A stretch of 64,000 bases of DNA. Source: a virus. Made by a program: the position numbers and the translations under genes. This document shows positions 4,433 through 47,320 of this stretch, one piece after another. How positions within the stretch are numbered: the first letter of the stretch is position 1; the number at the start of each line of letters is the position of its first letter. The notes under the pieces are model-generated. The model was not told the origin of the DNA. It worked only from the letters and a program-made list of their open reading frames with translations, and did not search any database. The DNA lies in IMG/VR virus record IMGVR_UViG_3300035698_029335, positions 1-64,000 of that record; one strand, given 5' to 3'.

Positions 4433-4446
4433 TTCTGCCTCACTCT

Positions 4447-5015: not shown

Positions 5016-5044
5016 ATCTTAACAGATCATTTATGAAATGTCAA
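5016..5044 (-). promoter_or_regulatory. Sigma70-type promoter, GATC-box class
   Basis: TTGACA tttcataaatGATCtgt TAAGAT. Confidence 0.75.
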
Positions 5045-5350: not shown

Positions 5351-5379
5351 ATTTTAACAGATCATTTTGTTTCTGTCAA
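5351..5379 (-). promoter_or_regulatory. Sigma70-type promoter, GATC-box class
   Basis: TTGACA gaaacaaaatGATCtgt TAAAAT. Confidence 0.75.
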
Positions 5380-22274: not shown

Positions 22275-22785
22275 TACCCTTTCCGCCCTTGTAGTTAGAA
22301 CCTGACGATCCGAAGCCGTCAGTACCTCTATTACTAATTGTTATTTCTCTATTATACAATTCTCCTTCGTCACATATAGCTGCGTCAAAGTGTACAACTG
22401 GAATCAGTACTAATTGAGCTATTTTGTCTCCCGGTTCAATGAGTTGAGGGGAGTTAGATACATTGTGCAAGATTACAGAAACTTCACCAGCGTACCCTGC
22501 ATCGAGAACCCCACCGCCAACTATCAAATCTTTCTTACTGGACATACTAGAGCGATTTTTGACTTCAAGCATATAACCGTGTGGTATCTCAAACTTAAGT
22601 CCTGTCCTGAGTTTACTGTTTTTACCAGGGTGTACTACAATAGAACCACTAAGCATGTTCTTTTTCGGATCCATCTTATTCGGCTCAACGTCAGGGCAGA
22701 AAAATACATCGATACCAGCATCACTAGGGTTTTTTCTACTAGGAGAAATCACGTATGTGTGTGCCTTAGCATACCTTAAGATCAT
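22267..22785 (-). CDS. dut: Trimeric dUTPase
   Basis: DAGID, RSS, GVLDAGYAGE, GDKIAQL and RGTDGFGSSG. Confidence 0.95.
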   Translation of the reverse strand: MILRYAKAHTYVISPSRKNPSDAGIDVFFCPDVEPNKMDPKKNMLSGSIVVHPGKNSKLRTGLKFEIPHGYMLEVKNRSSMSSKKDLIVGGGVLDAGYAGEVSVILHNVSNSPQLIEPGDKIAQLVLIPVVHFDAAICDEGELYNREITISNRGTDGFGSSGSNYKGGKGNG

Positions 22786-23059
22786 TTGTCACCCCTTGCG
22801 GTTATAACCATCTCTTCCTCTCCATCTAAAAATAGAGCGAACTTCTTTTCCTCTACGTATTCTTCATATTCACCAATAACGAGTTTTGTAAGCTCGGTAC
22901 CATCTTCCATTATCTCTAGAGTCATTTCAATCATTTTTCCTCCTTTATTATACAATGCATACCATTACCACACTTGCTGCACTCTGGTGGCTTTCTAGGT
23001 TCTTTAGTCACTACTTTTTGTTTGTTCCCACAAACACTACACTCATATGTCCTCATTAC

Positions 23060-24055
23060 TTATCCCAATAATTTAAGGTTGTGTCTTATGGAGCGCGTAC
23101 TAAAGCCCCACTGTTCATCATAATCTAGCTTTGCCATGTATGGTCTATTCATGTGCACAACATCCTTCTTCTTATCATAGCCCCAACACTTGATCCTCGT
23201 GACTGTGTTTGTTTCATCGATAGTTTCCAAGATGGCGTAATCTTTTCCTTTTGCCGTTTTCTTTAGAACAATAGCCTTAGGGATAAACCAAGTTAATTCC
23301 ATTACTGGATCATATTCAGCTATCGGAGGTACCTTATATGCTTCCAGACGTTCCCTCACTGCATCACTCAGTACCATAGCTATAGGATATATACCAGTTA
23401 ACTGAATAAGGTTCAGTATCCTCTCTTCTCTCGAAAAGTCGCCTTCAGGAGCGTACAATTTAATGTTGGCTTCCAGCTGGTCTTTGTTTCTTGGTCGATC
23501 GACTGCGACACACGACCAAAAATGCTTAGCCCCAGTGAACCTTTCATCAACTAGCTGCGCTAGCGCACCTGAACGGCACAATACATCTAAGTTGCCTTTG
23601 TTTAGTTTTCCGTATGAAACTCTTTCGTGGAAAAGCAACTCCTCAACGCTATTAAATGGTCGGTAATTAACTATCTCTTTAATCGCCGCATCACCAACAC
23701 CCTTTATAGAGCTGAGTGGTTGAATTAGTGTTTTGCTATCTTCTTCAGCAATTTCCCACTTTGAACCAGAGGCATTAATATCAAGACCTCTAATTTTATA
23801 ACCAAGACTCTTAATGATGTTGTTCGCTTCTTCTTTCTTTGCTTCGCCTTGAGCATCCAAATAAGCAGCCAGCCACTCTGATGGGTGATAAGTCATCAAC
23901 CAAGCACACTGATAAGAAACCATTGAATATGAAACGGCATGGCTATTCGAGGTCAATGTACCGTCAGTCAAATAAAATTGATGATCTTCGTGCTCTACCT
24001 CTAAGTCATAAGTGTCTATCTCGCCCATTTCTTCACAAGAAATTATCATCGCCAT
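23060..24055 (-). CDS. dnaE: DNA polymerase III alpha, C-terminal half, led by a split-intein C-fragment
   Basis: After ...LTSN: SHAVSYSMVSYQCAWL, DINAS, LSSIKGVG (HhH) and an OB-fold-like KTAKGKDY; RBS AGGAG. Confidence 0.93.
   Translation of the reverse strand: MAMIISCEEMGEIDTYDLEVEHEDHQFYLTDGTLTSNSHAVSYSMVSYQCAWLMTYHPSEWLAAYLDAQGEAKKEEANNIIKSLGYKIRGLDINASGSKWEIAEEDSKTLIQPLSSIKGVGDAAIKEIVNYRPFNSVEELLFHERVSYGKLNKGNLDVLCRSGALAQLVDERFTGAKHFWSCVAVDRPRNKDQLEANIKLYAPEGDFSREERILNLIQLTGIYPIAMVLSDAVRERLEAYKVPPIAEYDPVMELTWFIPKAIVLKKTAKGKDYAILETIDETNTVTRIKCWGYDKKKDVVHMNRPYMAKLDYDEQWGFSTRSIRHNLKLLG
23945..24055 (-). mobile_element. Split intein C-fragment (37 aa) of DnaE
   Basis: TYDLEV...HQFYL..GTLTSN|S (blocks F/G); +1 Ser; penultimate Ser in place of His. 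Confidence 0.92.
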
Positions 24056-24087
24056 ATTCTTCTCCTAATTTGTAGACGCCTTTATTG

Positions 24088-24327
24088 TTACGTCGTATTA
24101 ATTCTTCTATTACTTCCAAGTGTTTTCGTTCGAATTCTTCTCTTCTGTAGTTGTATAAACTCACCCCTACGGATCAGTTTATATTGTATCACATATGTTT
24201 GCCCTTCATAGGAGAAACATGGAAGCTCCTGCAATATTTCAACGACAAGAACGAACTTGCCGCGAATATCATTAAAGCCAGACCAATTCGCACCTGTTAG
24301 CACTAAGTCGCCTACTTCGAACTTCAT
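24088..24327 (-). CDS. GDLV-family small protein
   Basis: MKFEVGDLVLTGANW. Confidence 0.6.
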   Translation of the reverse strand: MKFEVGDLVLTGANWSGFNDIRGKFVLVVEILQELPCFSYEGQTYVIQYKLIRRGEFIQLQKRRIRTKTLGSNRRINTT

Positions 24328-24665
24328 TCAATTGCCTTTATCTTCGTGGTTACATAGCCAATAGCCTGCCACTATCCATCATCACTAGTGTACCTTTGGC
24401 GACAAGAATTTTTGTCGTTTTCCTTCTTTTTGTCACCATGGCAACCAGCACCAGAAATATTCCATGCCTTTAATGCATTGAGATTCCTAGTTGCTGCAAT
24501 TTTATTCCTGCGTCTTTTCTTTTTTCTCTTTCCCACATGTCCCACCGGTCGCCATATCTTCGACGACCTTACAGTCATCACCTGAAAACTCTTCAGACCA
24601 ATGATCATTCCAGCTTTCACCAGTCAATTGTATGAGATCGCCGACCTGAAACATGTTTTTTGTCA

Positions 24666-24998
24666 TTATTTTGCCAAGGAGAAGGTGCCATAAACATTAT
24701 CACCGGTCTCATACTTCAACTCAAAGTCAACTGTTACCTCCTGATCGAACTCTAGTACCTCCATGATGATCGTCTTTGCTTTGCGATCATATTCCCAACC
24801 AGCTGCAGCGGAACCAGAACAACCAAGCCCTACGACTTCACCATCAGTATGCTCGAATGTGTGAGTTCCAGTGCTCAAGTTCTGTGCATTGAGACCGCTT
24901 TCGAGGAACATAAATTTAGCCATGTACATTTTCTCGCCGTTTGTCGTGACGAGACTAAACTCCTCGAAGCCATGTGAGTCTGTACACACCTTCTTCAC
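24666..24998 (-). CDS. Hypothetical protein
   Basis: 110-aa ORF with GTGA coupling. Confidence 0.5.
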   Translation of the reverse strand: MKKVCTDSHGFEEFSLVTTNGEKMYMAKFMFLESGLNAQNLSTGTHTFEHTDGEVVGLGCSGSAAAGWEYDRKAKTIIMEVLEFDQEVTVDFELKYETGDNVYGTFSLAK

Positions 24999-26317
24999 GC
25001 AACTACTTTTGAAATCAACTTGATGGTCTCACGTTTGTACAAATTGTTGTCGGTCGCGTGCACGTCTGGCGTACACCATTCAATTCTGTAAAATCGCATA
25101 GCATAAATAATTACTCCAATCACAATGCCATAACCTAGCCTGGCGAACCTTTCGCCTGAAGCATGTCTCACTAGGTCTCCAATATGAACTTTTCGCATCA
25201 CAAAACCTTTGTCTTAGCTATCAGAGAAAGGGAAGTTGCGCTTCTGGTGATAATGAGTTCTCCATACTCTAAGCGATACACAAGCTTGTTGTCCCAATAG
25301 TGTGACCTATATTTTTCTACAATTAGAAAAGGTCGAACTGTAGTTATGGGAACCCCGTCGTTCAGCCGCTCTTCATCAACCAAACAAACTAAATCACCAA
25401 TTTGAAAACTATAATCATCACAGTCATCATCACAGTCATGCATTGGGGTCCTTAAGTTGTAGAAACAAGTGAATCACAGGGCATTTCAATTCTCACAGCA
25501 CACTGATTAATGCGTTTTTCCATTATATGATTTCGCCGGGTATGTGCACCAGAACTGCATGCCTTCAAGTAGTTCACTTCTGTTCTTCCTGAAGCTCTCA
25601 ATAAATAAAGTCTTGCCTCACCTTTACCTAGCTGATAAGATACCATCACATTCATCATAACTTTTCTGCTTTCTGTATTAGGAGGAGCGGCTTGTTTGAG
25701 CCTTGTTGGTTGCCAAAGAGCGAATGTTTCTCGCCAAAGGCAACAACGTAAGTGAGATTTGTATCTGCATAGTTTTGATAGACAGAATCATACACACTAA
25801 TAACTACACCTATACCATGCTCATTGATCAATTTATTAGAGTATATACTTGAAAGAGATACTAAGTCGCCGACCTCTATTTCTTCCATTTTATCACCCTT
25901 TCGATATTTTATATTTCTTCCAGTTTCTGAGAGCGCCTCCGTATTCTTCTCGTTCGACTACTTCGCAGGTGCCATCAAAAGGACAACTCGTGCCTGAAAG
26001 TAAAACATATGAATCATTTATTCCATCTGTAGCAACTACTAGAAATCGACAAGTACCCGTGTCTTCATTAATATCAATGTCGCTGCTGTATATAAGGTCT
26101 CCAACTTTTAGATACATTCTTCTAGCTCCTTTACTCTCGCGACAAGTTTCAAACTAGAGCCTTTGTGGGTCCTATTTGAATAGGTTGAATGAGGTTTATT
26201 ATCTTGCCAGAGAATGATATATCTCTCGCCCTTAAAAGCAAAAGTAATTATGCCCAATGCATTGTTCAAAATGGGACTCTTCTTGCATACTAAATCGCCT
26301 ACTTTAAACATCAACAT
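24995..26317 (-). CDS. Cluster of five GDLV-family genes (24995-25201, 25198-25443, 25655-25888, 25893-26117, 26108-26317) plus one unrelated small ORF (25452-25658)
   Basis: Each has (I/V)GDL(V/I) near the N-terminus and most end in L.L(I/V)(S/A)K(V/A). Confidence 0.6.
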
Positions 26318-26667
26318 AATTATTCGTCCGACAAATTAATTGCCCGTACAACTCTTGCGACTGGGTTTGTAGCAGCAGCAATCAACTGAAGGTTTGTGGT
26401 TTTGATTGCGAAGCTTTAAGAAATGCCATACACAAACTCAAGCATAGGCAACTCTTCTTTGATCTGATGCTTATAGAGGCTATCTTTGGCTCGTGGGTGG
26501 TGGTCTGCTTTTAACTCAAAGCCATGCAAACCACACTTTCCAGACCACACTTTCCTAATGGCTTGCTCATCTGCAGAAGCAAAATAAATGTCGCCCATTG
26601 AAGACGTTCCAGTGCTATCGCACCGCCTAATCAAAACATACATACCCAGCACCCTTTCGTCTGCAAA

Positions 26668-26994
26668 TTATCTTAAAATAGTACCGCGAAAGCATCTTGT
26701 TATTGTGTGCCACTCACCGTCCCACGATGAATCACCCAACATCAATTGCCCTTTTTTGGTGTATACACCAACTCCATCAGTAACACCAAATTCATTCAGC
26801 AGACCGTTGAGTCGCTCTCTAGTGGTGGTCGTGTTCCATCCGGCAGTAGTAATGTGCAGCCCGAGATTAGAGAACTTTGCAATCTTGTTGCCGCGCAAAA
26901 ACATCTCACCATCACGCACACATGTGTTTGCTTTGCCGAAGTTTTCTCCATCGAAAAAGGCTGCAGCTGCTTCTTTAGTGATCTTTCGTGACAT
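26668..26994 (-). CDS. Hypothetical early phage protein
   Basis: RBS AGGAG; directly downstream of the promoter at 27022-27050; LRGNKIA...GWNTTTTRERLN. Confidence 0.6.
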   Translation of the reverse strand: MSRKITKEAAAAFFDGENFGKANTCVRDGEMFLRGNKIAKFSNLGLHITTAGWNTTTTRERLNGLLNEFGVTDGVGVYTKKGQLMLGDSSWDGEWHTITRCFRGTILR

Positions 26995-27021
26995 GCGTAG
27001 CTCCTGGTTTTTGTTAAATTA

Positions 27022-27050
27022 AGTTTAGCAGATCATTTTGCATTTGTCAA
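27022..27050 (-). promoter_or_regulatory. Sigma70-type promoter, GATC-box class
   Basis: TTGACA aatgcaaaatGATCtgc TAAACT. Confidence 0.75.
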
Positions 27051-27591
27051 ATATGTTACGGCTCATATTCAACCACGCACTGTACCAGCATTAGTTCGTT
27101 CTGGTTCCGGTGCGCGAAAAGTGTTTTCGAGTCATCTCAACTCCTCAGTTGTTTTCGCCCATGAGACAATTCAGCAAGAGCAAAGCCTCGAATGAAGGCT
27201 TTGAAGAGTGGAATATTACAACCCACTTCACCGCCTTTCTTGACTAGCGTCATTAATTCATCATGCAACAATGGCACACATGTACCACCATCCTTGAAGT
27301 GCATTTTTCCCATTCGCTGAGCTTCTAAGAGTACTTCGCGAGCGTAAATCACAGCCATTTTTGTTTCCTTCTTTTAAAAGATGCTCTTTTTAGCCGAAAG
27401 AGCGCACTGTTCCATCGATTCATCAACTGTGAGAGGTCGCAAGCCCATGATTTTATAGATTTTTCCGGTAACTGCACGAATCTTCTTTTCACAGGCGACT
27501 GCCTCTGCCAACGTATCAGTGCATGCACAGACTTGCTTTGTTTCGTTCAAGATCACATACATATTGAACACCTCATCTTTCTTATTTTCTT

Positions 27592-27620
27592 ACTCTACCA
27601 GATCATTTTGGTAAAATCAA
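27592..27620 (-). promoter_or_regulatory. Sigma70-type promoter, GATC-box class
   Basis: TTGATT ttaccaaaatGATCtgg TAGAGT. Confidence 0.65.
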
Positions 27621-27624
27621 CCTT

Positions 27625-28119
27625 CTATTCGCATTTCGTTGAGGCAGGTGGCAATTCGTTTTGAGTTGCAGTCTTTATTAAGCCGACTCTCTCTGTATCT
27701 TCTTCTGTCCAATAAGTATCTTCGCTGTGAGTGGAACCATCATACAACCAGCCGGTCCTATCTCTAATATCCGTATGGGTTAGTTCGTGCGGCAATGCTA
27801 GTGGTATAGTGTATATGTCACTATTGGAAGTATTGTATCCAGTAACACAAATATCATCTTCTACCATATACGCGTCTTTGTATTGTTGTGTCACATCTAA
27901 TGCAGCACTAAAGAACTCGATAGTGACTCCTTCATAGTTCCTACCAAGAAGAGCTAATACTCTTTCAGCATACACTCTCTCATCAACGCTCATGCCAATC
28001 AAGCATGCTCCAGAAGGCGCACTTTTGTGACCACCCCTTGCGAACTCGTTCTTACATGGTCCTTCTGGAATACAAGAGTTCATTAAGCAGACGGCAAGTA
28101 TCATGATAGCATATTTCAT
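27625..28119 (-). CDS. Putative lipoprotein with HExxH motif
   Basis: MKYAIMILAVCLMNSC signal; LPHELTH. Confidence 0.5.
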   Translation of the reverse strand: MKYAIMILAVCLMNSCIPEGPCKNEFARGGHKSAPSGACLIGMSVDERVYAERVLALLGRNYEGVTIEFFSAALDVTQQYKDAYMVEDDICVTGYNTSNSDIYTIPLALPHELTHTDIRDRTGWLYDGSTHSEDTYWTEEDTERVGLIKTATQNELPPASTKCE

Positions 28120-28679
28120 TCGACTACGCTCTTGATTGCCTTCTTGTCTAAGCCAATAATAGCTCTATTAAGTGAACGCATGATGTGTTCCACTTTATTA
28201 GTTTCATCTCTGGTTACAGTGTCGGCATTTAGATGAGCTTCAAAGATGCATAGCTGCGCCACCAACTTTCTCGTTGCAATAATTGCAGTTGCGGTGCACT
28301 TATCATGACGACCCTTTACTCGTGCGGCTCGCTGCTGAGCTTCTTTCTTAGTCACGCCAAAGGCTTTTCTGGCTTCTATACGCTTTTTGTTCCACAATTC
28401 AATGATTGGCAACGAGAGATCATCGTCCTTCATGAAGAAGAGGCATGTTCGCTTATTTGAATTCAAAAAATGTATGAACTCATTCCACAAACCTGCCTCT
28501 TCTTGTGAAAGGTCGACATGTCTTGTAGCAGCTGCTTTTGTCATAGCATACGTCTGGGCTCCTAACGATCTCCTGCTGCTGTCCCAACGATTTGTTATCG
28601 ACCACATTCGCTCTGTAAATTGCTCCAGGCGCTTCATTATTTCGCTCGCCAACGCTGACGGCTCCTTATACTCTTTCAT
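28116..28679 (-). CDS. Hypothetical helical protein
   Basis: 187-aa ORF with RBS GAGGAAAGG. Confidence 0.5.
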   Translation of the reverse strand: MKEYKEPSALASEIMKRLEQFTERMWSITNRWDSSRRSLGAQTYAMTKAAATRHVDLSQEEAGLWNEFIHFLNSNKRTCLFFMKDDDLSLPIIELWNKKRIEARKAFGVTKKEAQQRAARVKGRHDKCTATAIIATRKLVAQLCIFEAHLNADTVTRDETNKVEHIMRSLNRAIIGLDKKAIKSVVE

Positions 28680-28943
28680 CCTTTCCTCTTATTTGTATAC
28701 TTTCGTTAATACACTGCTTGCATGCAAGAGTGTGGCACCTTTGTAGGTGCCAACTACCCACTCGACGCGTACAAATTGGTAGCCTATAGTTTGCACTATT
28801 TTTCCTAAGCTACCAGCTTCCAAGCGTACTTCTTCACCTATCTTAAAATACATCTCATACTCTTATTAAGGGGTGGGTGAAGTACAATGTCCAGCGGCGA
28901 ACACAACTCTTATAGCGCTGATGTTTTACCGCTTTAATTATAA

Positions 28944-29264
28944 TCACGCCGATCCGTATTTCGTCAGGGCTCGTTCTAGGAAGCCACCATCGAAAAGAGA
29001 CTCGAACACTTCTTGTGGGATGCCCACCTTTGCGTGACTGAAGCGTGTCTTATTTTGAGCCATATTGAGGCGCTGTACTGCGATGTGCACCCCGAGCTTA
29101 CGATTAGGGTTGTCGGCTGGATTCACAACACTGTACGCTGCGTCGAACGTACCATTGTCGTTTACAGTGTACACTAGGGTGCCCATCAAACGACCTCGCT
29201 CCGAGCTGTAATCGTTCTTGTTTTGGTGGAAATGTTTTACTTTAACTTTTTTAACTTCTTGCAT
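28944..29264 (-). CDS. Hypothetical small phage protein
   Basis: AYSVVNPADNPNRKLGVHIAVQRL motif (see findings). Confidence 0.5.
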   Translation of the reverse strand: MQEVKKVKVKHFHQNKNDYSSERGRLMGTLVYTVNDNGTFDAAYSVVNPADNPNRKLGVHIAVQRLNMAQNKTRFSHAKVGIPQEVFESLFDGGFLERALTKYGSA

Positions 29265-29303
29265 GTGTTCTTCCCTCAGCCTTGAATGGCTATTTGTTTA
29301 CTG

Positions 29304-29989
29304 TTACTTCTCTTCGTCTTCGTCTATACTTACTGCTCTGCCTTTAATTAATGACAAAGGCACCCGGCAGCTGCGACCTAAATTCTGTAAGTACACCTCA
29401 TATATACAGGTTAAATGTCCACCCACAACAGACGTATAAGGTCCTGAAAGAATGTACCCAACCCCAGCCACAAACTTTCCTTCTTCTTGCTTGTAAAGGC
29501 GACGTCGCATCGCGTGATCGCTCATGCTTATTTCGACCAAGTCACCTTCGTGATATACTTCTTTCATGCTAGTTCACCTTCGGAGAATACACAGCTCGCT
29601 AGTTTGATTCTAAGCTCACGAGTCATACAGGTCCCTCTTTTATTCCACAATACTTTAGCTAAGTGCAGTTGCTCTGCATAAGATACATGTTACCGATGAC
29701 AATACCTATGTCGCCCTTAGATCCCTCTTCCTCTTGTAGGAGCTGCACTAAGTCGCCGATGTTATATTGCACTTCAATCTCCTTCGGGTATATATACAGC
29801 TTTCGCTAGTTTGACGTATGAGGCGTTATCAATACAGTGAACAGTCTGCCCTTCTAGCTCTCCCCACGACACCCTAATATAACGATCGTGCATTATATCG
29901 ATGACAATACCTATATCACACACATGTTTTCCTTGCATGAAATACACTAAATCACCAACGCTATAGTGCACCTTTCTTTTCTTCATCAC
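29304..29989 (-). CDS. Three GDLV-family genes: 29304-29567, frameshifted ~29564-29772, and 29774-29989
   Basis: YHEGDLVEI; YNIGDLVQL...DIGIVI (frame breaks mid-gene); YSVGDLVYF...DIGIVI. Confidence 0.55.
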
Positions 29990-30005
29990 TCACCTTGTTG
30001 CAGTG

Positions 30006-30057
30006 AAGTGAAGGTGTGACAACAGTGTTATTCAAAGTAGTTGTCACACCTTCACTT
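30006..30057. repeat. Perfect 18-bp inverted repeat with 16-nt loop
   Basis: aagtgaaggtgtgacaac ... gttgtcacaccttcactt. Confidence 0.95.
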
Positions 30058-30061
30058 TTTC

Positions 30062-31303
30062 TTAGTAGTCGATAGCCACTACTTTTTCGTGAGTAGTGAA
30101 GTATGGATCTTTGGCTCCTCGAGAGTCAGTCATCCACAGTCTAGTACACTTTGAATTGATGGGCTTTTCAGCATACATATCTGTCAATACAATGCAGCCA
30201 TCAAAGCTTCGCTCGTTGATATATCGCGCAGGTGCATTGAAATCAGTACCACCACACATCACTCGTTCGTGCGCCTTTCGTTCGTTCTTCTTCCAAATAT
30301 ACACCAAGTTGTCATCAACAACTGTGTCGAAAGGTACAACAGTGAATTCTGCCACTTCTGCAAGCTTATTCAATTCACTATAGAACGCTGACAACATCAT
30401 GTCGCTGACTGAGCCAGACTGATCGATTGCGATTGCGATCTTTGCAGTTCTGAGGGTTTTTCGTCCGCTGTGAATGTATGGGTATCTACGGTTAATCTTC
30501 TTGACTGAAGATTGGTGGCTTGATCGTTGTGAGGTCTTCACAAAGTAACGAAGTACCGACTTCCAATCAACCTTTGGAGTGATTCGGTCAATGATTTCTT
30601 GGCGCATGCTCGATGACACCGTGCCCCAACCACCCTTCATGCTTTGTTGCGCAGCTGAGGATATCGCCCCTTTCAATCGCTGCCTTGCAAGTTCCTTGAT
30701 AGCCTCTGGGATCTTTCCGTCTTTCGACCAGCCATTGTGGGAATCAAACCCCTCACCATTGCCGTCGCTGTCACCCTCACCGCCTTCGCCGTCGCTTGGC
30801 TGACCTCCTGGAATCCTTATTCCCTTCACTCCGAGACCAGATTTGAAATACCACTCTGCAGATTTCCCGCGCGGCATTTTCAACTTTTCTGGCAAGATTG
30901 CCTTAGCGTAAAGTTTCTTGATGTCGTCTCTGGGTTGGGCGGGGAAAATTTCGCTATTGATCGCTGCATCGGTCGCATAGTTCCATCGCTTTGTCATGCC
31001 TTCGGCAGGCATGCGTTCAGTGACATGTCCCAGGACGAGGTGCAGGAATTCATGAATCAAAACAAGCCTGATCTCTGCATCAGTGAGCTTGGAGAAGAAG
31101 TCGGCATTATATAGCATATCAAAACGCCCACTATGTGGGTTGACCCGAACTCCTGCAGTCGGAATCATCGTCGTAGGCGATTTAGTGACATGGCGGGAGA
31201 GTGCAGCATAGAATGGCTCTTCAGCCAAGAGTCGAGCAACGTGCATGTTCAGATCGAAAGTCATCTTTTTTCCTTTTGGTTCTGGTGATCTGCCTGGAAA
31301 CAT
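30062..31303 (-). CDS. DUF2201-type metallopeptidase plus vWA-domain protein
   Basis: IPTAGV, LIHEFLHLVLGH, WNYATDAAIN, IDQSGSV (MIDAS), GGTDF and VLTD; probable start MTFDL at 31264. Confidence 0.88.
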   Translation of the reverse strand: MFPGRSPEPKGKKMTFDLNMHVARLLAEEPFYAALSRHVTKSPTTMIPTAGVRVNPHSGRFDMLYNADFFSKLTDAEIRLVLIHEFLHLVLGHVTERMPAEGMTKRWNYATDAAINSEIFPAQPRDDIKKLYAKAILPEKLKMPRGKSAEWYFKSGLGVKGIRIPGGQPSDGEGGEGDSDGNGEGFDSHNGWSKDGKIPEAIKELARQRLKGAISSAAQQSMKGGWGTVSSSMRQEIIDRITPKVDWKSVLRYFVKTSQRSSHQSSVKKINRRYPYIHSGRKTLRTAKIAIAIDQSGSVSDMMLSAFYSELNKLAEVAEFTVVPFDTVVDDNLVYIWKKNERKAHERVMCGGTDFNAPARYINERSFDGCIVLTDMYAEKPINSKCTRLWMTDSRGAKDPYFTTHEKVVAIDY

Positions 31304-31330
31304 TATAGCAGATCATTGTGGTTATGTCAA
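31302..31330 (-). promoter_or_regulatory. Sigma70-type promoter, GATC-box class
   Basis: TTGACA taaccacaatGATCtgc TATAAT (perfect consensus hexamers). Confidence 0.85.
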
Positions 31331-31427
31331 ATACGTTTCCCAAGTATCTTTTTCAGTTTACATCTGCGATGATCTCGGAAACTTTTCTAATATCTTCAGA
31401 TTTCATAATGATCCCTGCCTTTCAAAG

Positions 31428-31456
31428 ATCGTAACAAATCATTCTCCTGTTGTCAA
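31428..31456 (-). promoter_or_regulatory. Sigma70-type promoter, GATC-box variant (GATT)
   Basis: TTGACA acaggagaatGATTtgt TACGAT. Confidence 0.6.
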
Positions 31457-31582
31457 CGCTTTGCTTATCATGGTGGCGGAATAGTCACAATGCCCACTAT
31501 TGAAAGTAATCTCTTCCATTGTACCGTCACTCATTGCGAAGAACGGGTCACCAATCTCAAACTGCATAAATACCTCCTTGCT

Positions 31583-31611
31583 AGGATATCAGATCATCTC
31601 ACTTCTGTCAA
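31583..31611 (-). promoter_or_regulatory. Sigma70-type promoter, GATC-box class
   Basis: TTGACA gaagtgagatGATCtga TATCCT. Confidence 0.7.
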
Positions 31612-31622
31612 CAACTACTCGT

Positions 31623-31650
31623 AAAGAAAAAGAGGGGCTTGCGCCCCCCT
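31623..31650 (-). terminator. Intrinsic terminator after the AAA ATPase gene
   Basis: AGGGG-gcgcaag-CCCCT followed by CTTTTTCTTT on the minus strand. Confidence 0.7.
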
Positions 31651-31671
31651 CAATCACCATTCAACTACTTC

Positions 31672-32814
31672 CTAGCTCTTAGCAGCTGCTTCTTCAGCCT
31701 CTTTCTTGGCTTGCATCCCAGTCAACAACTCACGAAGGTAAATAGAGACAGCTGTTTTCTTGCCATTAATAGTCACAGGTTGTGCATGCAAAGCAACAGT
31801 GTTTTCCGTCGGACCAACATTGAGTCCTCCCCAGATCTTCATGGCTGCTTCCGATGGCAAGGTGATGAAGTATTCACCAAGATTCTTGATCTGCTTCTTG
31901 GTCAACTTCTTAGCGAGCGACTCCATTGTTGCCATCTTCTCGATCAAGGTCAAGTGCTCAATAAGACCGTAGTCTTTAGTCAGCTCGAGCTTACCCTTGT
32001 CGATGATGTCAGCTGGCGACACTTGACGGTCATAAGATCCGAAGAAGTCTGAGAACGCACAGGCTGCTTCAAACCCTACATAGCCAAGAGACAGAAGACG
32101 AATCTTATCGCTCCACTCTTCGAGCAGCCCTGATTCTCGCATGGTGTCATTCAGACGCTTCCAGGAGCGTCGCGAAGGGTACTTCTTATTTGCCACGAAG
32201 TCATCCTTCGCGTTCTCAAGGTGAGGAATGTTCTGATTCACGAAATCAAGAACAACCTTGTCGAGGTTATTATGCCCCAGCTCTCTGCCATCGGCATCAC
32301 GAGCAGGAGCTTTGCCCCATTGCATCCAATCTTCAACAGAAGGAGAAATGTCGTATACAGTCCAGCGATCGAGTTCTGCCGGATCCATCTCACCAACTTG
32401 ATATTGTGCCCCCTCGTCACCCCCATTAACTGCCGCGACTACCAAAGTGTCCTTGTGTAGGGCAAAGCCGTTGAGCTTTCGCGAGTCAGTAAGCTCGAAG
32501 ATGCCTTGACGTACTTCGATTACGGCACGGTCAACTTCATCGAGGAACAACATTACTGGGCTGCAGCATGCATCTTTAAACCAGTCTGGCGGGTTCCAAG
32601 CCGTTGCTGCATCTTCAATAGTCGGCAACCCAACCAGGTCACCTTCAGTCATTTGTGAGGCACGTCGTTCGACGACGCGAAGACCAAGATCTGCAGCTGC
32701 TTGGTAGACGACCTCAGATTTACCAATTCCATGTCGACCACGGATCATTAGCGGGTGCTTTGCTTCAAATACGAATGGAGCGATTTCACGGAACGTAGCA
32801 AAGTCAATCTTCAT
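31672..32814 (-). CDS. MoxR-like AAA+ ATPase
   Basis: GRHGIGKS Walker A, GDLVGLP, LFLDEVDRA Walker B, MDPAELDRW and PSRRSW. Confidence 0.92.
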   Translation of the reverse strand: MKIDFATFREIAPFVFEAKHPLMIRGRHGIGKSEVVYQAAADLGLRVVERRASQMTEGDLVGLPTIEDAATAWNPPDWFKDACCSPVMLFLDEVDRAVIEVRQGIFELTDSRKLNGFALHKDTLVVAAVNGGDEGAQYQVGEMDPAELDRWTVYDISPSVEDWMQWGKAPARDADGRELGHNNLDKVVLDFVNQNIPHLENAKDDFVANKKYPSRRSWKRLNDTMRESGLLEEWSDKIRLLSLGYVGFEAACAFSDFFGSYDRQVSPADIIDKGKLELTKDYGLIEHLTLIEKMATMESLAKKLTKKQIKNLGEYFITLPSEAAMKIWGGLNVGPTENTVALHAQPVTINGKKTAVSIYLRELLTGMQAKKEAEEAAAKS

Positions 32815-32860
32815 TTCTCATCCTTTAGCAGAGAGTGGTTTGTTTGTCTCTCTTGGAACC

Positions 32861-32889
32861 AGTCTATCAGATCATTTCTAATGTGTCAA
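32861..32889 (-). promoter_or_regulatory. Sigma70-type promoter, GATC-box class
   Basis: TTGACA cattagaaatGATCtga TAGACT. Confidence 0.75.
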
Positions 32890-33025
32890 CGTTCCTGGTG
32901 GTGTTTTTTATTCTTCTTTATAAACAGATAGTTATGCGGCTGTAGCTCTTATTTCTGTTCCTCCACAGTTCCTCTTTAAGGCTGCGCAGGGGAATGATCA
33001 CTTTTGAGATCAAAAAAGCCAGACA

Positions 33026-33381
33026 TCAGCCTGGCAGTCTTCCGTCATATTTATCGAAGTCGCTTTCCCACATCTCCGCCACCGTATATCCTTGTTCTTG
33101 CAGAGCCTTTTTTCTTTTCAGCCACTCGTTGTGTAATGCACCATATTTTTTTTGACAACCGGGTTTGTTCCCTCAGCTAGGTATTTGTCTGGCGAGTGTG
33201 CCGAGCGCACATTGGGCAACCTGCTGCACTACTTATGTGATTGCTAGGTGATTGCATAAAGACTCCGTGTTCTAAGCACACTATCTTTACTTTTGTGCGC
33301 GCCCTTGTAGTCAGTCAAATTATAGTTATAAGTGCCTTTGTGCACTAACCTAGCTCGTTTGATAAACTCATCTGTAGTCAT
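33026..33381 (-). pseudogene. Decayed paralog of the homing endonuclease at 17195-18415
   Basis: MTTDEFIKRARLVH...(frameshift) KVKIVCLEHGVFMQSPSNH...GCPMC...(deletion) KYGALHNEWLKRKKALQEQGYTVAEMWESDFD; the catalytic D...E region is missing. Confidence 0.85.
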
Positions 33382-33392
33382 TGTTCTCCTAC

Positions 33393-34472
33393 TCATTCTT
33401 GATCCCACTTCCTGAACATCGAGACCTGATACCAGTCATCATCCTGGGTGGTGTACTTCTGACATGTGACATACTCTCCATTCCATTGGAAGGCTGGAGC
33501 GCCGTCGCCCCATTGTACAGCCATCGCAACGATAAGTTTAAATTCTCCTTTGAGACCAAAGTTCGCCCAACTTTCCCCTGTCAATTGTACAAGATCACCT
33601 ATTTCAATTTCTTGTTCACTCATGGGATGTATACATTACTTACAATGGTGGCTGAGTAGTCTTCGTAGCCACTTACGTAAGTTTCTTTACAATAAATGCT
33701 CAGGTAGTCGTAGATGTTGCCACTATCATAAGCAATTCTCGGGTGCTTCCCCACACCAATGATAAGTGTCATTGTGTTGTACAACTCTGGAAAGTCACTC
33801 CGCCATGTAAGCCCAGTCAACTGCACAAGATCACCTATTTCGAATTCTTGCTCTTTCATGGTTTATATACTTTGCTTACAATAGTGGCTGCCCACCTTTC
33901 ATTGACGTAATACAATTCGCCATTGTTAATAAACGCTGGTCCAAACATGTCTGATGTTGTTAATAATACAACGCTATCTTTAAGTTCTCCCCACCAATCT
34001 GCACCAGTTAATCTTACCAAGTCTCCTATTTCAAACTCTTGTTTTTTCATGGTCTACATACCTTACTTACAATAGTGGCTGAGAAGTCGGTTTCGTATTC
34101 ATCATAATAATAAATACTCCAGGTTTGCCGACAGGTCGAGAATGAGCCAACTGGAAATACCGGATCACCTTCAGCGTCATAACCAGTAATTCTGACCAGT
34201 CAGAATTACCAGGTCACCTATTTCAATTTTTTGTTCACTCATGGATTGTATACCTTACTTACAACTGTAACTTCCCATTCCTCGCCAACATAATATTTTT
34301 CACAATCAATAGGATCACAAAAACATGGCTGATAGGAGTTATTGAGTGACGTTATCAATACAGTTTTGTTTTTAACTTCTTCCCACCAAGCATCACCAGT
34401 CAATTGTACAAGATCACCTATTTCAATTTCTTGCTCTTTCATGGTTTATATACTTTGCTTACAATAGTGGCT
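33393..34472 (-). repeat. Tandem array of five ATGA-coupled GDLV mini-genes joined by ~77-bp direct repeats
   Basis: Repeats at ~33577-33653, 33813-33889, 34004-34080, ~34196-34270 and 34396-34472; genes 33393-33623, 33620-33859, 33856-34050, 34047-34242 (frameshifted) and 34239-34442. Confidence 0.9.
34047..34242 (-). pseudogene. Array cassette interrupted by a 13-nt insertion
   Basis: MSEQKIEIGDLV... and ...FSATIVSKVCRP are in different frames; the span is 196 nt = 183 + 13. Confidence 0.8.
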
Positions 34473-35121
34473 ATAGTTTATACTTTTTAATGTCGCGCTC
34501 CTCTACCGTTACAGCACAAGTTCCACCAACAGGCATCAAGAGGTATTTTTTCGCCCCCATTGCATGAGATGTTGGGACCTGGTGGTTAGAAGCAACGACG
34601 AGAGCGGCTTTCCACTCTGCAATATCTTTGAGGTGCTTCTTCAGAGTAACAAGCGCACCATCAGCGAACTTTGGCTTTTCAGTGTATGCTATATAATAGC
34701 CTTCTGCGTACTTGCTGTGCACAAATTGCTTGTAAGTTCTCCTTGGCACAACATAGTCTTCTTCTTCAAAAATCCTGCTTATTAGTGCGCCCCAATAGCC
34801 AGTCTGATTGAGTTTGTTTGTCTCAAAGTAGAACTTAGCCATGATCATTGCACGTGGTCGCAATTCTGTTAAGTAATCACGCTTGTGCTTTTCTTCAAGC
34901 GCTAAGTAAGCCGGAGCGGTAGTTTCTTCGATTTTCTCAAAAGTTTTCATTTGCGCGTAGCTGAGATCACCATATTTTCGAAGAGTTTGCTCAATAGACT
35001 CAAGAAATTTCTTGTTCCACTCCGAAGTGTTGTCGGAGAGGGCTTCTGCTGTGTTTTGAATTCTCTCAAGGATCTGGTCAGGCATTCTAAACTCCTCTGT
35101 ATGTATACTCCATCTTATCAC
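34471..35121 (-). CDS. Hypothetical protein with SH3-like C-terminus
   Basis: 216-aa ORF; KFADGALVTL...ALVV...YLLM...VEERDIKK. Confidence 0.55.
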   Translation of the reverse strand: MIRWSIHTEEFRMPDQILERIQNTAEALSDNTSEWNKKFLESIEQTLRKYGDLSYAQMKTFEKIEETTAPAYLALEEKHKRDYLTELRPRAMIMAKFYFETNKLNQTGYWGALISRIFEEEDYVVPRRTYKQFVHSKYAEGYYIAYTEKPKFADGALVTLKKHLKDIAEWKAALVVASNHQVPTSHAMGAKKYLLMPVGGTCAVTVEERDIKKYKL

Positions 35122-35360
35122 GGATCACTTTGAGAGTCAACCTCCATTTCCTCGCACGCCACCAACAAGCGCAGGCAGCGCAGCGCTATGTATTGTGGTC
35201 TCCTGGCTTTTCGAAACTTAACTACAAACCATGCCGATGGTAATACTGGCTTCTCAGTGACTACGCCGACGTCGCTCTGCAAATACCCAAAGAGACTGGT
35301 CGAATATTTGTCATCAGCTATGCATACCAAGTCGCCAACACTAATATCTTCTCGGTTCAT
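35118..35360 (-). CDS. GDLV-family small protein
   Basis: ISVGDLVCI...VGVVTE...VVKF...LRLL. Confidence 0.6.
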   Translation of the reverse strand: MNREDISVGDLVCIADDKYSTSLFGYLQSDVGVVTEKPVLPSAWFVVKFRKARRPQYIALRCLRLLVACEEMEVDSQSDP

Positions 35361-36244
35361 AGTTCACGCTCACGCACTTTACTTGCAAGAGTGGCTGTAT
35401 AATCGATCGCGTATTTGTGGACCCTAATCAATAGAATGTCTTTGGTAGCTACATACTTTTCGAGCATCAGATCTTTCTTTTGTACAACTTCAAGCTGCCC
35501 ATGTATTTCTCTAAAATGATGTGGACCATCAACTTCTATTATCACCTTCATCCTTTTCGCATATATATCTATTTGCTTTCTCGACGTCAAGTTCATATCG
35601 AATAATACACTTTTTATCTGCCTGTTACTCTTAAAATCATATGTCGGAAATCTTTCCTTAATGTACATATACATCCACTTCTCTGGTTTAGACTTATACT
35701 TGTGCATTTGCTTTATACATTTGTTGTAGAAATCTTCTGGATTTTCTTTCCTCCATCGAGCAAGTACTTCAGCTCTCTTGTCTTGCACATCTTGTCTGGC
35801 TGAAGTTTTCATTGCTGTCTTTGAAGCACGTTCTCTAAAATCCTCTCTTTTGTTCAGATTCCCAAGGAGTCTTGAGCGGCGAAGCCTCTCGGCAGGATTA
35901 GCCATTATCGATTTTGTTACAACTTGACCCATCCTAAGTTTTGCCTTCTCGGTCATGGTTTCATACCCCATCTCTTTACATCTGCTATTACTGCAGTTGT
36001 GCTCCTCCTTATAGTGTGGCGACAAATCGGCAGATACAAAGCTGCACAACTCACACGCTATAAGGTCTCCCAATTCTACACCCCTTTCCTTACAAAGCTC
36101 ACAAACGTATCTGTGATTGAAGAAAGCCTTTATACTGTATAGTTCATAATCGCAAGCTACAGCAGTTCCAAACCTCTCTTCGCAATCTCTCTTATTGGCA
36201 GCTTTTCTCCGCATTTTGTCCTGAATTTGTGATCTTTCGTGCAT
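35357..36244 (-). mobile_element. Free-standing Vsr/DUF559-like homing endonuclease next to the dnaE N-fragment
   Basis: SKPEK...QIDIY....VIIEVDGPHHF...KKD...LIRV; N-terminal CxxC...HxxxxH; start uncertain. Confidence 0.75.
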
Positions 36245-36453
36245 CTTATTACTCTCCCGTCACTTAAAGTATACTTATACACTTTTTTGACGCCGTTTTT
36301 ATGTCTCTTTTTGACAGGGAGAAAAATATCCTTTTTCGTCTTTTCAGAGCGCGAACGCACAATATCACCTGGCAGTACGTCAATAATCCTCTTATCACAC
36401 AAAACATCACCACCGTCACTATAAATAGTAACCAGTTCATCAAAGTGCAAGCA
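36157..36453 (-). mobile_element. Split intein N-fragment (98 aa) of DnaE
   Basis: CLHFDELV (block A), GRVIRCTKDHKF (block B TxxH), then stop. Confidence 0.93.
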
Positions 36454-39036
36454 AGCGTTGAAACCATAGCCAGCCCATAGCTCGCAGGAATGATACAACT
36501 TTTCTGCATCCATCTTACTAATTCCTTTTTCAATGCAGCCATCAATAAACTTCGGCTTAATCTCAGCCAACACCTTGTCTGCTTTGCCAGTACCCTTCTT
36601 AGTTAATACCTTTCTGAAGATGTTTCCGTCGTTCAGCGAAATACCTTTGCCAAGCTTGTGTGCCAATAATGCGATTTGTTCTTGAAACACAAGGAACCCA
36701 TAAGTATCTTCGGTAACTTCTTTATGTAGTGGATGCAAATACTCAATTGAAGATGGGTCTTTTCTTGCTTCAATATACAACTTATCCACCTTCATACCCA
36801 ATGCAGCTGGTCGAAAGATAGAAGTGACTGCTGAAATATCAGTGATATTGGTAGGCTTTACTTTTGTGCAAAACTTCTGTGCTCCTTCACCTGTAAATTG
36901 AAAGATGCCAGCCCACTTGCCTTGATGGAACACTTCTTCATATACTCTTTGATCGTCCACGTCCAAAACATCTGGGTGTAGATTTTCATCATAATACTTC
37001 CTAACATCCTCAAAAGAAGGTCTCTTGATGCCGCGTGTGCGCTGCAGAATTCTCCTTGTCGCACCATCGATCATCTCTAAAGTAGACAAACCTAAGATGT
37101 CGAACTTAATAAAGCCCATAGGTTCCAAGTGCCTAACATTTTGACCTTCACTCCACGGCGTTTGACGTACACCCTTGCCGCTGATTAGTGGCATGTATTT
37201 GTTTAAGTCTTCTCCAATAACGCAGCCACCAGCATGCTTTGACTGACTACGAATGGAGCCGTAAAGTGCATCAATATACACTTCCACTTGTGGGTGTTTA
37301 ACTAGAAACTTGTTAAGCGTATCACTGTATTTTTTGATTTCCTCAAAAGTAGGCACATATATACCAGTCTTTATGCCATTAGCTTTTTTAGCAGCTGGTG
37401 TTGCCTCTGAAATCATCTTACCGGTCACAACATTGACCTCAGCAAAAGGTATATCATAAAGCTTCGAGATGTCTTTGACTAACGATTTCAGTTGCAAAGT
37501 ATTCCAGTTGGTAATAGGTACCACTCGGTTCTCGCCCCAATCTTCGATAAGCAAATCTTTCAATTCTGATGGATTTGAAACATCATAATCGATATCAGGC
37601 ATATCAACTGCATCCGCACGCAAGAAGCGTTCGAATTGTAGGTTGTATTTTATAGGATCAATCTGCGTAATACCAAGCGCATATGCCACGATGCTACCAG
37701 CTGCAGAGCCTCGCCCAGGAGCAGTTAATTGTACTTTTACAGCCTTATCTGCAATAGCATTCATTGTCAAGAAGTATTTTGCAAAATTAAGCTTAGAGAT
37801 TACCCCTAGTTCGTACTCAATTCTGTTCGTGTATGCGTTAGATATACGATATATCCTTTTCTTGCTTTTGTTCTTAATACTGAAGACCTTTTTCAGTCCT
37901 ATCCCAACCAGCTCTTTTAGTTCTTCATCAGCCGTTTTACCTTCAGGCACAACAAAGTCAGGCAAACGAATTGTTGTGTCTGGCGCAAAATCTTCGATTA
38001 CGTCATGAGCAATACTGTGTGTTAACTCGATGGATTTTAGCACCAAGTCATCATCATATTTAATGTCCAAATCTTTCGTATATTTCTTGTACGCTTCCCA
38101 CATCTGATTGCCGTTTTTAGGATACAATTCATACCCAACTTCTTCAACAGTCGAAGGGATATCTTCGATGGACGCGCCCTTGCCTCCCATCCAGCCCAAC
38201 TTCTTGTATACTAGTCGTGACTGCCATGCTTCGGGGCTAGGGTAGTGGCTGTCAGCTGTAGAGATTAGTTGTACTCCAAACTCCTTAGCCACCTTAATTA
38301 CTAATTGATTAATTTCGTGTTGTTCAGGAATTGCATTCCACTGCAGCTCTGCATACCATCTATCACCAAAAATACCTTGCATCCTTCGTGTAGTTTCGCG
38401 CATTGCCTCTAGGACTGTTTCCTCCCCTTCCTCTCTATGCAACCAATAATCTTGAGCATAAATTCCACCCATACAAGCCGATGTTGCAATAACGCCTTCG
38501 CTGTGCTTCTCCAACAGAGCATAGTCAATGCGAGGGAAGCGATAAAAGTTCTTCTCAGTGTAGGATTGTGAAATAATCTGAAAGAGGTTGTTTAACCCTG
38601 TTTGGTTTTGCGCCAACAGGATCATATGCGCTCTTCTGTTTACTATGTTTTTATTACTTTTTTTAGTTTCTTCTTCATCTTCGATAGTAGCGCCAATAGA
38701 TGAACCTTCATCTTTCTTTTTTCTACCTTTCTTAGTTTTATTTTCTTCCGCAATCCGCTCTTTGTCGAGCTTCCATTGTGTTAGGTCTGGGTGGAAGTAA
38801 GCCTCTACACCATAGATTGCCTTAAACTCTTTACCAGCTTCTTTCATCTTCTTGGTATGCAATACTTGCTCTACTAGACCGTTCATATGCCCATGGTTTG
38901 TGATAGCCATAGCATCTCCTCCGTTTTGATAACAAAAATCAAGATGTTGATCAGTAGGACCAAACCCGTCAAAAATTGAATATCCGTCATGAGCATGCAA
39001 ATTGACATATGGGATTTTAGAAACTGTTCTTTTCAT
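36157..39036 (-). CDS. dnaE: DNA polymerase III alpha, N-terminal half (PHP plus polymerase core), ending in a split-intein N-fragment
   Basis: NLHAHDGYSIFDG, TADSHY, GRGSAAGS, FERFL, MPDIDYD, KHAGG, IKFDILGL, GIFQF and WAGYGFNA|C. Confidence 0.96.
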   Translation of the reverse strand: MKRTVSKIPYVNLHAHDGYSIFDGFGPTDQHLDFCYQNGGDAMAITNHGHMNGLVEQVLHTKKMKEAGKEFKAIYGVEAYFHPDLTQWKLDKERIAEENKTKKGRKKKDEGSSIGATIEDEEETKKSNKNIVNRRAHMILLAQNQTGLNNLFQIISQSYTEKNFYRFPRIDYALLEKHSEGVIATSACMGGIYAQDYWLHREEGEETVLEAMRETTRRMQGIFGDRWYAELQWNAIPEQHEINQLVIKVAKEFGVQLISTADSHYPSPEAWQSRLVYKKLGWMGGKGASIEDIPSTVEEVGYELYPKNGNQMWEAYKKYTKDLDIKYDDDLVLKSIELTHSIAHDVIEDFAPDTTIRLPDFVVPEGKTADEELKELVGIGLKKVFSIKNKSKKRIYRISNAYTNRIEYELGVISKLNFAKYFLTMNAIADKAVKVQLTAPGRGSAAGSIVAYALGITQIDPIKYNLQFERFLRADAVDMPDIDYDVSNPSELKDLLIEDWGENRVVPITNWNTLQLKSLVKDISKLYDIPFAEVNVVTGKMISEATPAAKKANGIKTGIYVPTFEEIKKYSDTLNKFLVKHPQVEVYIDALYGSIRSQSKHAGGCVIGEDLNKYMPLISGKGVRQTPWSEGQNVRHLEPMGFIKFDILGLSTLEMIDGATRRILQRTRGIKRPSFEDVRKYYDENLHPDVLDVDDQRVYEEVFHQGKWAGIFQFTGEGAQKFCTKVKPTNITDISAVTSIFRPAALGMKVDKLYIEARKDPSSIEYLHPLHKEVTEDTYGFLVFQEQIALLAHKLGKGISLNDGNIFRKVLTKKGTGKADKVLAEIKPKFIDGCIEKGISKMDAEKLYHSCELWAGYGFNACLHFDELVTIYSDGGDVLCDKRIIDVLPGDIVRSRSEKTKKDIFLPVKKRHKNGVKKVYKYTLSDGRVIRCTKDHKFRTKCGEKLPIREIAKRGLELL

Positions 39037-39788
39037 TCTTCTCTCCAGTGATGATTTAAGATTACCCTATTACAATAGGTTCTACTTAAGTTATATTGTT
39101 TAGCTAGTGCTGTTATTGTAATGTCGCCTTGTGCATGGCGCTGTCGCATCTCTTTAACGATTTCCCATGTTAACTTGTGCCCTCCTTTTGCACACAACCG
39201 TGCTTTTCTAAGGATCGACATTTTTTCTTTAATTTCAACTGAATGGAGTTCCCCGTGCATAGGGTTACCTTTGCCTTGCATTCTCTTACTTTGTTCTGGT
39301 CGTTTCTTGCCTTTGCACCATGACTCCTTACCTTTTAGCGCTTTTGATAACTTTTCTCTTGTCTCGGGCGATTGAGTCTTGCCATACATAGGACTCAGAT
39401 CTCCCCTCATTCCATACATCGGGTTGTTTTCACCGGATACATCAGCATGATTTTCAGACATCCTCTTTCGTGCCTCTTCGGAGTGCTTTCTACCTAATGT
39501 ATTTCCTGCTTTTGGGCAAATATTGATCAGCTGGCAAAATTCATAACTATCAATAACCGCCTACTCGCTCTCTATAAGTAATGCGGTTGTTGCAACTTGT
39601 TGAACTATTTCGAAACATATATCCTCCTCACCAAACTTATTATACACTCTTTGTAAATGTATGTTGCCATGCTTATTGCCCCTTAGCATGCTTAAGTGAT
39701 GAGCTTTACGTTTTGCAAAATTTATAGCGGAGCCTATATAAAACTTATCATAATTTGCAAAACAAATCTTGTATATAACATTGTTCAT
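39033..39788 (-). pseudogene. GIY-YIG / NUMOD3 homing endonuclease with one in-frame TAG
   Basis: VIYKI...FYIGSA...R...H, then E-S-E-*-A-V-I-D, continuing in frame into GRKHSEEARKRMS and NPMYG NUMOD3 repeats. Confidence 0.85.
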
Positions 39789-47299: not shown

Positions 47300-47320
47300 G
47301 TTTCATGTTTCATGTTTCAT
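47287..47320. repeat. Heptamer tandem repeat (ATGAAAC x ~5 on the minus strand)
   Basis: tttcatg x4 + tttcat. Confidence 0.95.

Follow-up and report, generated by a model that had tools for sequence, protein, structure and literature searches.

We report here on dnaE, the gene of a replicative DNA polymerase, in a 64,000-nucleotide (nt) stretch of DNA from a salt-lake phage (positions 1 to 64,000 of IMG/VR record IMGVR_UViG_3300035698_029335; henceforth the window). The gene lies in two parts, each of which carries one half of a split intein, and 12,104 nt separate the last codon of the N-terminal intein half (IntN) from the ATG of the C-terminal half (IntC). Between them is an island of 11.2 kb with approximately 29 open reading frames (ORFs) on the minus strand (24174-35398), which is located inside the gene of a homing endonuclease. 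The best explanation, and one that we hold to be probable, is that a fractured phage dnaE was pushed further apart by a module relocated from elsewhere in its own genome. The layout of the split dnaE is not new and no new kind of system is revealed; what is new is the enlarged gap, the broken endonuclease gene, and the relocated native module.

The break point in dnaE

The N-terminal ORF (DnaE-N, P0001; 36157-39036, minus strand, 959 aa) contains an N-extein of 861 residues (36454-39036, minus strand) with the PHP, pol III alpha, and finger domains of Pfam, which ends in GYGFNA and is followed by CLHF...TKDH... and a stop codon. The C-terminal ORF (DnaE-C, P0002; 23060-24055, minus strand, 331 aa) begins with a 37-aa IntC ending in DLEVEHEDHQFYLTDGTLTSN and continues into a 294-aa C-extein (23060-23944, minus strand; HHH_6 in Pfam) that starts with SHAVSY, its Ser being the +1 nucleophile. 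These ORFs and their junction residues (GYGFNA↓CLHF and LTSN↓SHAVSY, with the arrow at the intein boundary) read as a first-pass annotation, made from the sequence of the window alone, had claimed.

A scan of IMG/VR with DnaE-N recovered 41 relatives with 49-60% identity. The N-extein is collinear with the intact DnaE of relatives up to residue 860, where the match stops, and the match to the C-extein resumes one codon later and in the same frame in all loci that extend far enough. The join in relatives without an intein reads GYGFNK↓SHAVSY. Because relatives join at this very point with a one-codon step, the break is located exactly and does not reflect a chance match, and the two ORFs of the window are therefore one polymerase gene that is interrupted at a single peptide bond. 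Judged by this alignment, the extra 98 and 37 residues of the two ORFs are an insertion. The genes that flank both dnaE parts are syntenic with those of relatives that have an intact dnaE, and both parts have kept the same strand, the original order, and the original locus. Cultured phages are at most ~31% identical to DnaE-N, and a megablast search with DnaE-N against the phage collection returned no match.

The split intein

IntN (36160-36453, minus strand, 98 aa, net charge +10) matches the N fragments of the Npu and Ssp DnaE split inteins (4kl5, 2keq, 4lx3, 1zd7; E=3.5e-11). Its nucleophile, Cys1, stands at intein position 1 directly after the N-extein, and TKDH of block B (IntN residues 71-74) aligns to the TKDH of Npu DnaE. 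The split point of IntN is that of Npu and Ssp, since the alignment reaches the last residue of both. IntC (23945-24055, minus strand, net charge -10) aligns end to end with the 36-aa C fragment of the Npu type (7qil, E=1.6e-3; 4lx3_B; 4qfq_B); its blocks F and G read YDLEVEHEDHQF...LTSN↓S, with DLEVEHEDHQF as block F and a terminal SN. The two halves are carried by separate ORFs, IntN with its own stop codon at 36157-36159 and IntC with its own ATG at 24055 and an AGGAG upstream of it. Among 30 DnaE-C proteins aligned from the 42 metagenome clusters described below, residues D17, L18, E19, H22, H25, S36, and N37 of IntC and the following S38 were invariant. On sequence grounds, the insertion is a naturally split class-1 intein homologous to the DnaE split intein of cyanobacteria. 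The conserved catalytic residues and the charge complementarity of the halves suggest that IntN and IntC would associate and splice in trans; such complementarity has also been described for other split inteins (PMC2677866).

The cyanobacterial Ssp/Npu DnaE intein (1zd7, 2keq, 4kl5) was the best relative of both halves in the structural database. It shares with the window the split point, an IntN of ~100 aa, an IntC of ~36 aa, the penultimate Ser-Asn, and the polymerase motif that is targeted. The cyanobacterial intein is inserted at Y↓CFNKSH, with Cys at +1, whereas that of the window sits four residues downstream at FN(K/A)↓SH, with Ser at +1. The insertion site first proposed for the window, GFN(K/A)↓SHA, is hereby upheld. 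The cyanobacterial dnaE halves also differ in that they occupy distant loci and have no endonuclease, and the charge polarity of the Npu fragments is opposite to that of the positive IntN and negative IntC of the window. Some members of the intein family in related loci (L044-L121) have Cys at position 1, many others Ser or Thr (GYGFNK↓SLHF, ↓TLAL), and the residue at -1 is K, R, A, Q, H, L, or S.

An island inside the homing endonuclease gene

The ORF that follows DnaE-N (35357-36244, minus strand) starts 88 nt inside the 3' end of IntN and encodes 295 aa of a putative Vsr-like (DUF559-like) homing endonuclease, with matches to PF04480 (DUF559; E=0.005, below the curated cut-off) and phrog_559 (5e-8). 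Its relatives are mostly 316-413 aa long, and several of those checked end over the ATG of IntC. We built a 348-node hidden Markov model (HMM) from endonucleases of related fractured dnaE loci, taking those with 300 aa or more; it matched the ORF strongly over nodes 1-308 of 348 (219 bits), after which come 13 unrelated codons. The 5' 282 codons of the endonuclease gene (35399-36244, minus strand) are here fused to a foreign tail, TATLASKVREREL, and a stop codon (35357-35398, minus strand), which together form the left edge of the island and resemble the 3' end of a GDLV mini-gene. The same model matched a remnant at the other side of the island over nodes 302-346 (E=7e-10). This 3' remnant (24033-24173, minus strand) has 46 open codons ending in GEEYGDDNFL and a stop codon, lies directly upstream of DnaE-C, and extends over the ATG of IntC and its ribosome-binding site, as it does in relatives. 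Since the endonuclease is split over nodes 1-308 and 302-346, the segment 24174-35398 is an insertion inside its gene. The first-pass annotation had the endonuclease followed by cargo; the two HMM-matched pieces instead place the block within the endonuclease gene, which it truncates.

Two overlaps of this gene with the intein were also observed. Its start (36157-36244) coincides with the 3' end of IntN, read in a different frame, where the conserved block B is encoded; the conserved N-terminus of the endonuclease, MHERSQIQDK, may therefore be a by-product of constraint on the intein. Its C-terminal GEEYG, likewise conserved, is encoded by the stretch that also holds the ribosome-binding site and ATG of IntC.

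The two edges of the island appear to hold parts of a single GDLV mini-gene that complement each other. In the six-frame translation, the motif T[ILV][AV]S[KN]V is found eight times; one copy is the foreign tail of the endonuclease, and the other seven sit at the ends of small minus-strand frames or close to them, four of these being the ends of GDLV ORFs. The right edge holds the 5' 50 codons of a GDLV mini-gene without the usual tail (24178-24327, minus strand), in an ORF (24088-24327) that continues out of frame into the endonuclease remnant. When 24178-24327 is joined to the tail at 35360-35398, the product has 63 aa and aligns over the full length with a paralogue of 64 aa (33856-34050). 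Two candidates for a crossover core were rejected. The best direct repeat or target-site duplication at the junctions of the island was 14 nt with 2 mismatches, and a shared TTATACA 7-mer was not significant (p=0.31 against shuffles) and was out of frame for rebuilding the endonuclease.

Contiguity of the locus

The island is present in 'salt lake metagenome' runs of 2017-2018. Logan short-read contigs from four runs (X1-X4) were compared with 22500-39500 of the window; runs X5-X17, which contain small shares of the island's sequence words only, were not counted as evidence. Contigs X1 record 1 (22500-26436), X3 record 17, and X4 record 25 span the right junction, and X1 record 6 (34443-37456), X3 record 20, and X2 record 14 span the left. 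None of these records has a mismatch, and the contigs of X1-X4 showed no alternative joint. Mis-assembly is unlikely because both junctions are spanned, each in three runs, by contigs that were assembled independently. The first-pass annotation had allowed that the intervening 12 kb might be a mis-assembly, and these short-read contigs speak for contiguity. Some contigs of runs X1 and X4 share just 53 nt of the gene of a DUF2201 VWA-like protein (30793-30846) and are unlike the window on both sides, which may reflect a related strain or a paralogue with a short conserved segment.

Origin of the island

The whole 77-kb record is collinear with records G002, in which dnaE is fractured, and G005 (191 kb, rated 100% complete), in which it is intact, with the island as the sole exception. 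The island encodes a MoxR-like AAA_5 ATPase (31672-32814, minus strand; PF07728, phrog_1297), orthologues of which are at 18.3 kb in G005 and 62.8 kb in G002. The partner of the ATPase, a DUF2201 VWA-like protein or putative metallopeptidase (30062-31303, minus strand; PF13203, PF09967), has orthologues at 19.5 kb in G005 (E 9e-142) and 64.1 kb in G002. In both records this pair, together with the adjacent GDLV gene in G002, has the same order and strand and lies 26-30 kb downstream of dnaE. The first conserved gene of the relocated module encodes a 216-aa protein whose function is not known (34471-35121, minus strand) and which had no Pfam or PHROG match; its weak homologues are at 16.5 kb in G005, just upstream of the ATPase and VWA genes, and at 49.7 kb in G002, away from the pair. 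Except for one weak match to the ATPase, no homologue of an island ORF was found within 10 kb of dnaE in the 41 relatives.

Synteny places the expected site of the module in the 3.3-5.4 kb region of the window, which holds GDLV genes and four copies of a promoter motif that is also found in the island. This motif, TTGACA-N10-TGATCTG-N-TA, had 13 matches against 1.9 expected by chance. Six of its good copies are in the island, four at 3357-5379, and one at 16966. Pfam and PHROG scans of 20 island ORFs, which gave few annotations, revealed no integrase, transposase, or recombinase. Synteny, the genome's own promoter class, the GDLV family, and the failure of these scans to detect a recombinase together lead us to regard the island as mostly a relocated piece of the virus's own accessory region, not as foreign DNA.

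The family of fractured dnaE loci

Genes broken in this manner are known. In the 'fractured genes' described by Dassa et al. (2009; PMC2677866), a free-standing gene for a homing endonuclease of GIY-YIG or Vsr-like type lies between two halves of a split intein, and three DnaE loci of their set have integration points unlike the cyanobacterial one. Our searches indicate that the arrangement is widespread. When the first 100 residues of DnaE-C served as query in a protein search, 42 metagenome clusters (250-555 aa) were recovered, and almost all of them begin with a highly conserved IntC (...TYDLEVxHxDHQFYLxNGxLTSN↓SHA). A scan of IMG/VR anchored on the IntC motif gave 80 loci, ~78 of which are further viral contigs with this intein at the site seen in the window. 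Their usual order is DnaE-N with IntN, a homologue of the window ORF 35357-36244, and IntC with DnaE-C. The endonuclease homologue, present in most measurable loci and absent from some, usually starts ~85 nt inside IntN and ends over the ATG of IntC. In the 64 measurable loci the gap from IntN to IntC was 15-4,687 nt, with a median of ~950 nt, so that the 12,104 nt of the window are extreme.

The split dnaE noted by the first-pass annotation is a member of a widespread family with an already described arrangement. The premise of that annotation that fractured phage genes normally have only an endonuclease between their halves agrees both with the 2009 survey and with the 64 measurable loci, and the comparison of distances between the dnaE parts that it had proposed marks the 12-kb spacing as derived and extreme. 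The fractured DnaE loci of Dassa et al. and the window have much in common: dnaE as host gene, halves that share a strand and keep the original order, an intein split at the point of endonuclease insertion, a free-standing, putatively Vsr/DUF559-like endonuclease after IntN, and an integration point unlike the cyanobacterial one. They differ in two respects. A spacer of 27-51 nt precedes the endonuclease in the 2009 loci, whereas the endonuclease of the window's family overlaps IntN by ~85 nt and also overlaps the IntC ATG. The endonuclease alone lies between the halves in the 2009 loci, whereas in the window the truncated endonuclease gene contains 11.2 kb with ~29 ORFs. The window is a derivative of the fractured-gene arrangement and not a plain member of it.

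The gene-breaking model put forward in the same study has the endonuclease lost in step III, before the parts are dislocated to separate loci in step IV (PMC2677866). The fractured gene of the window resembles step IV in that its parts are starting to drift apart, but here it was an insertion that caused the dislocation, and the endonuclease gene that it entered is still recognizable on both sides. With both scars readable, the locus represents a step from a fractured gene toward two dispersed genes, as the 2009 model predicted. Limited literature searches found no phage example of this dispersal step, nor any phage split genes separated by many genes.

Unsplit forms of the intein exist as well. 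The Rhodococcus phages Dorin (gp77) and Weasels2 have a mini-intein in DnaE at the insertion site of the window (SFNK↓CLAE...VTHN↓SHSVAY). Unlike the window, the DnaE-like polymerase of the cultured phage Dorin (L043 2510-6313) is a single ORF of 1,267 aa with a contiguous, cis-splicing mini-intein of ~156 aa and no endonuclease. In P0009, a metagenome cluster of 555 aa, IntN and IntC are fused in frame (...GLEIV-MAKII...) into a contiguous mini-intein; this fragment starts with the C-terminal end of a second intein (...LLVHN↓CIFQEQ), which recalls the 'DnaE-1' locus of Dassa et al. (2009). As a large natural family of split inteins with Cys1, Ser1, or Thr1, Ser at +1, and strong charge complementarity, the set could be of interest to protein engineers.

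The gap has been filled with other genes in other lineages. Distant relatives L063-L065 have 3.5-4.7 kb between their dnaE halves (L064:5313-10001; L063:6462-10001) and no endonuclease, with genes for a TnpB-like protein (PF07282), Tad/TadE-like pilus-type proteins, and an N6/N4 methylase in that space. The gap is ~2 kb in L077 and L079, and that of L077 (8016-10001), which likewise has no endonuclease, is taken up by a 661-aa ORF without a known family. Since these gaps hold genes other than the endonuclease, the gap has collected DNA more than once. The idea of a landing site, part of the first-pass annotation, holds to the extent that gaps in other lineages collect genes, but fails as an account of the island in the window. 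Taken together with the window, the 2-4.7 kb of other genes in independent lineages suggest that, once an intein is split, the interior of an essential gene becomes free to take up DNA. A more general proposal is that the split-intein gap is a recurrent 'safe harbour' within an essential gene, in which phages insert or rearrange DNA without a cost, that in this phage the polymerase halves come from separate transcription units, and that their trans-splicing acts as a timing device or AND gate for the start of replication; we regard it as speculative and rather unlikely to hold.

Proposed course of events

Comparison with relatives shows a class-1 intein that sits between GYGFN(K/A) and SHA and was split at the canonical point by a gene for a free-standing Vsr-like endonuclease. 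The outcome is DnaE-N with IntN, the endonuclease, and IntC with DnaE-C in one locus, the usual state in ~78 related viral contigs. The anatomy of the locus and its synteny then show the movement of an 11.2-kb segment of the genome's own accessory DNA into codon ~282 of the endonuclease gene. This segment comprises the module of 216-aa protein, ATPase, and VWA protein, GDLV mini-genes, and promoters resembling sigma-70 promoters of the host, and its arrival truncated the endonuclease and left the intein halves 12.1 kb apart. The apparently complementary parts of a GDLV mini-gene at the ends of the island are what a single reciprocal crossover between a circularized segment and the endonuclease gene could have produced. 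IntN (+10) and IntC (-10) would still associate and splice in trans to a full-length polymerase with the junction GYGFNA-SHAVSY. The halves are likely to be on different transcripts because six promoter motifs and two terminator-like hairpins lie between them, a separation that the split intein would make tolerable.

Several observations weigh against this account. Neither junction shows a significant DNA repeat or target-site duplication, and ~7-11 codons of the endonuclease seem to occur twice, once on each side, in diverged form; because of these two features, the crossover is a mechanism that we infer. Orthologues in relatives were detectable for only 3-4 of the ~29 island ORFs, and with most small island ORFs lacking a detectable homologue, a partly different (mixed) origin is possible. 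The contig ends ~5 kb past the last syntenic gene, so that the donor site is out of view. Run X1 may be the sample behind the assembly of the window. Finally, with the record only 43% complete, there may be a second polymerase gene.

Four other explanations bear on the same evidence. An assembly artefact, in which 11-12 kb were placed by a chimeric or repeat-induced mis-join, is extremely improbable. GDLV mini-genes and promoters are repeated throughout the genome and could mislead an assembler, and there are loose ends at 30793 and 30846, which are local variants, but the junctions lie in unique endonuclease sequence, not in repeats, and the contigs that bridge each of them in three runs are free of mismatches and alternative joints. 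The first-pass annotation took the split gene to be a landing site for cargo; on this reading the island would be of foreign origin, either a mobile element or an accessory island acquired horizontally. The GC content of the island is slightly above that of its flanks (0.438 vs 0.41), most of its ORFs have no homologue in relatives, and the gaps of other lineages hold clearly extraneous genes (TnpB-like, methylase, Tad-like). However, the scans found no integrase, transposase, or recombinase, and the collinear relatives have orthologues of the ATPase, the VWA gene, and the adjacent GDLV gene elsewhere in the same order and on the same strand, 26-30 kb downstream of dnaE, besides weak homologues of the 216-aa protein. 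The island also shares the promoter class and GDLV family of the genome, and the 1-5.4 kb region, where synteny would place the module, has a similar GC content (0.428) and the same promoters. We consequently find a foreign source improbable and see in the block largely a relocated accessory module of the virus itself.

The separation could also be adaptive, with the halves under promoters of different class or time and trans-splicing as an AND gate controlling when phage replication begins. The first-pass annotation had likewise suggested that assembly of the halves could gate polymerase activity. This explanation can draw on the six sigma-70-like promoters and two strong terminators between the halves, on the fact that the promoter motif nearest upstream of DnaE-C is one of the island (27026-27050), and on the finding of the arrangement in contigs from several runs of 2017-2018. 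We nevertheless consider it doubtful, as the window is alone among the 64 measurable loci in having such spacing, which speaks for a neutral accident more than for a design under selection, and as the still recognizable fragments of the endonuclease suggest a recent event. Decay of the split dnaE into a non-functional gene, with replication by another polymerase or that of the host, is very improbable. The endonuclease is broken, the record is incomplete, and the residue at -1 is Ala where Lys is usual, but the two halves are long open frames in which no polymerase domain is missing, every catalytic residue of the intein is kept, IntC has a good ribosome-binding site, and A, R, Q, or H likewise stands at -1 in other relatives with the intein. 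Furthermore, the record contains a single PF07733 hit. A fractured dnaE spread further by its own accessory module thus remains the explanation that we favor.

Other features of the island and the window

A GDLV mini-gene array (33393-34472, minus strand) has an 87-nt repeat across each stop/start overlap, with five copies at 60-84% identity. The six sigma-70-like promoter motifs of the island are at 27026, 27596, 31306, 31432, 31587, and 32865 (span 27026-32889, minus strand), where a consensus scan also picked them up, and the two strong terminator-like hairpins at 33018-33035 and 31630-31651 (minus strand). All 11 good copies of the promoter motif in the window are on the coding strand and concentrated in two accessory regions, and the TGATCTG directly before the -10 element is invariant. 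The product of an island gene at 26668-26994 (minus strand) matches the Pfam family Kyano_Gp96 (E=2e-15) and phrog_554, a family otherwise named from T4-like cyanophages.

The window contains a second fractured gene, that of a replicative helicase (45744-48652, minus strand), with ORFs of 449 aa (47303-48652) and 169 aa (45744-46253). Its parts are separated by ~1 kb and both map to adjacent positions in relatives, a compact layout unlike that of dnaE.

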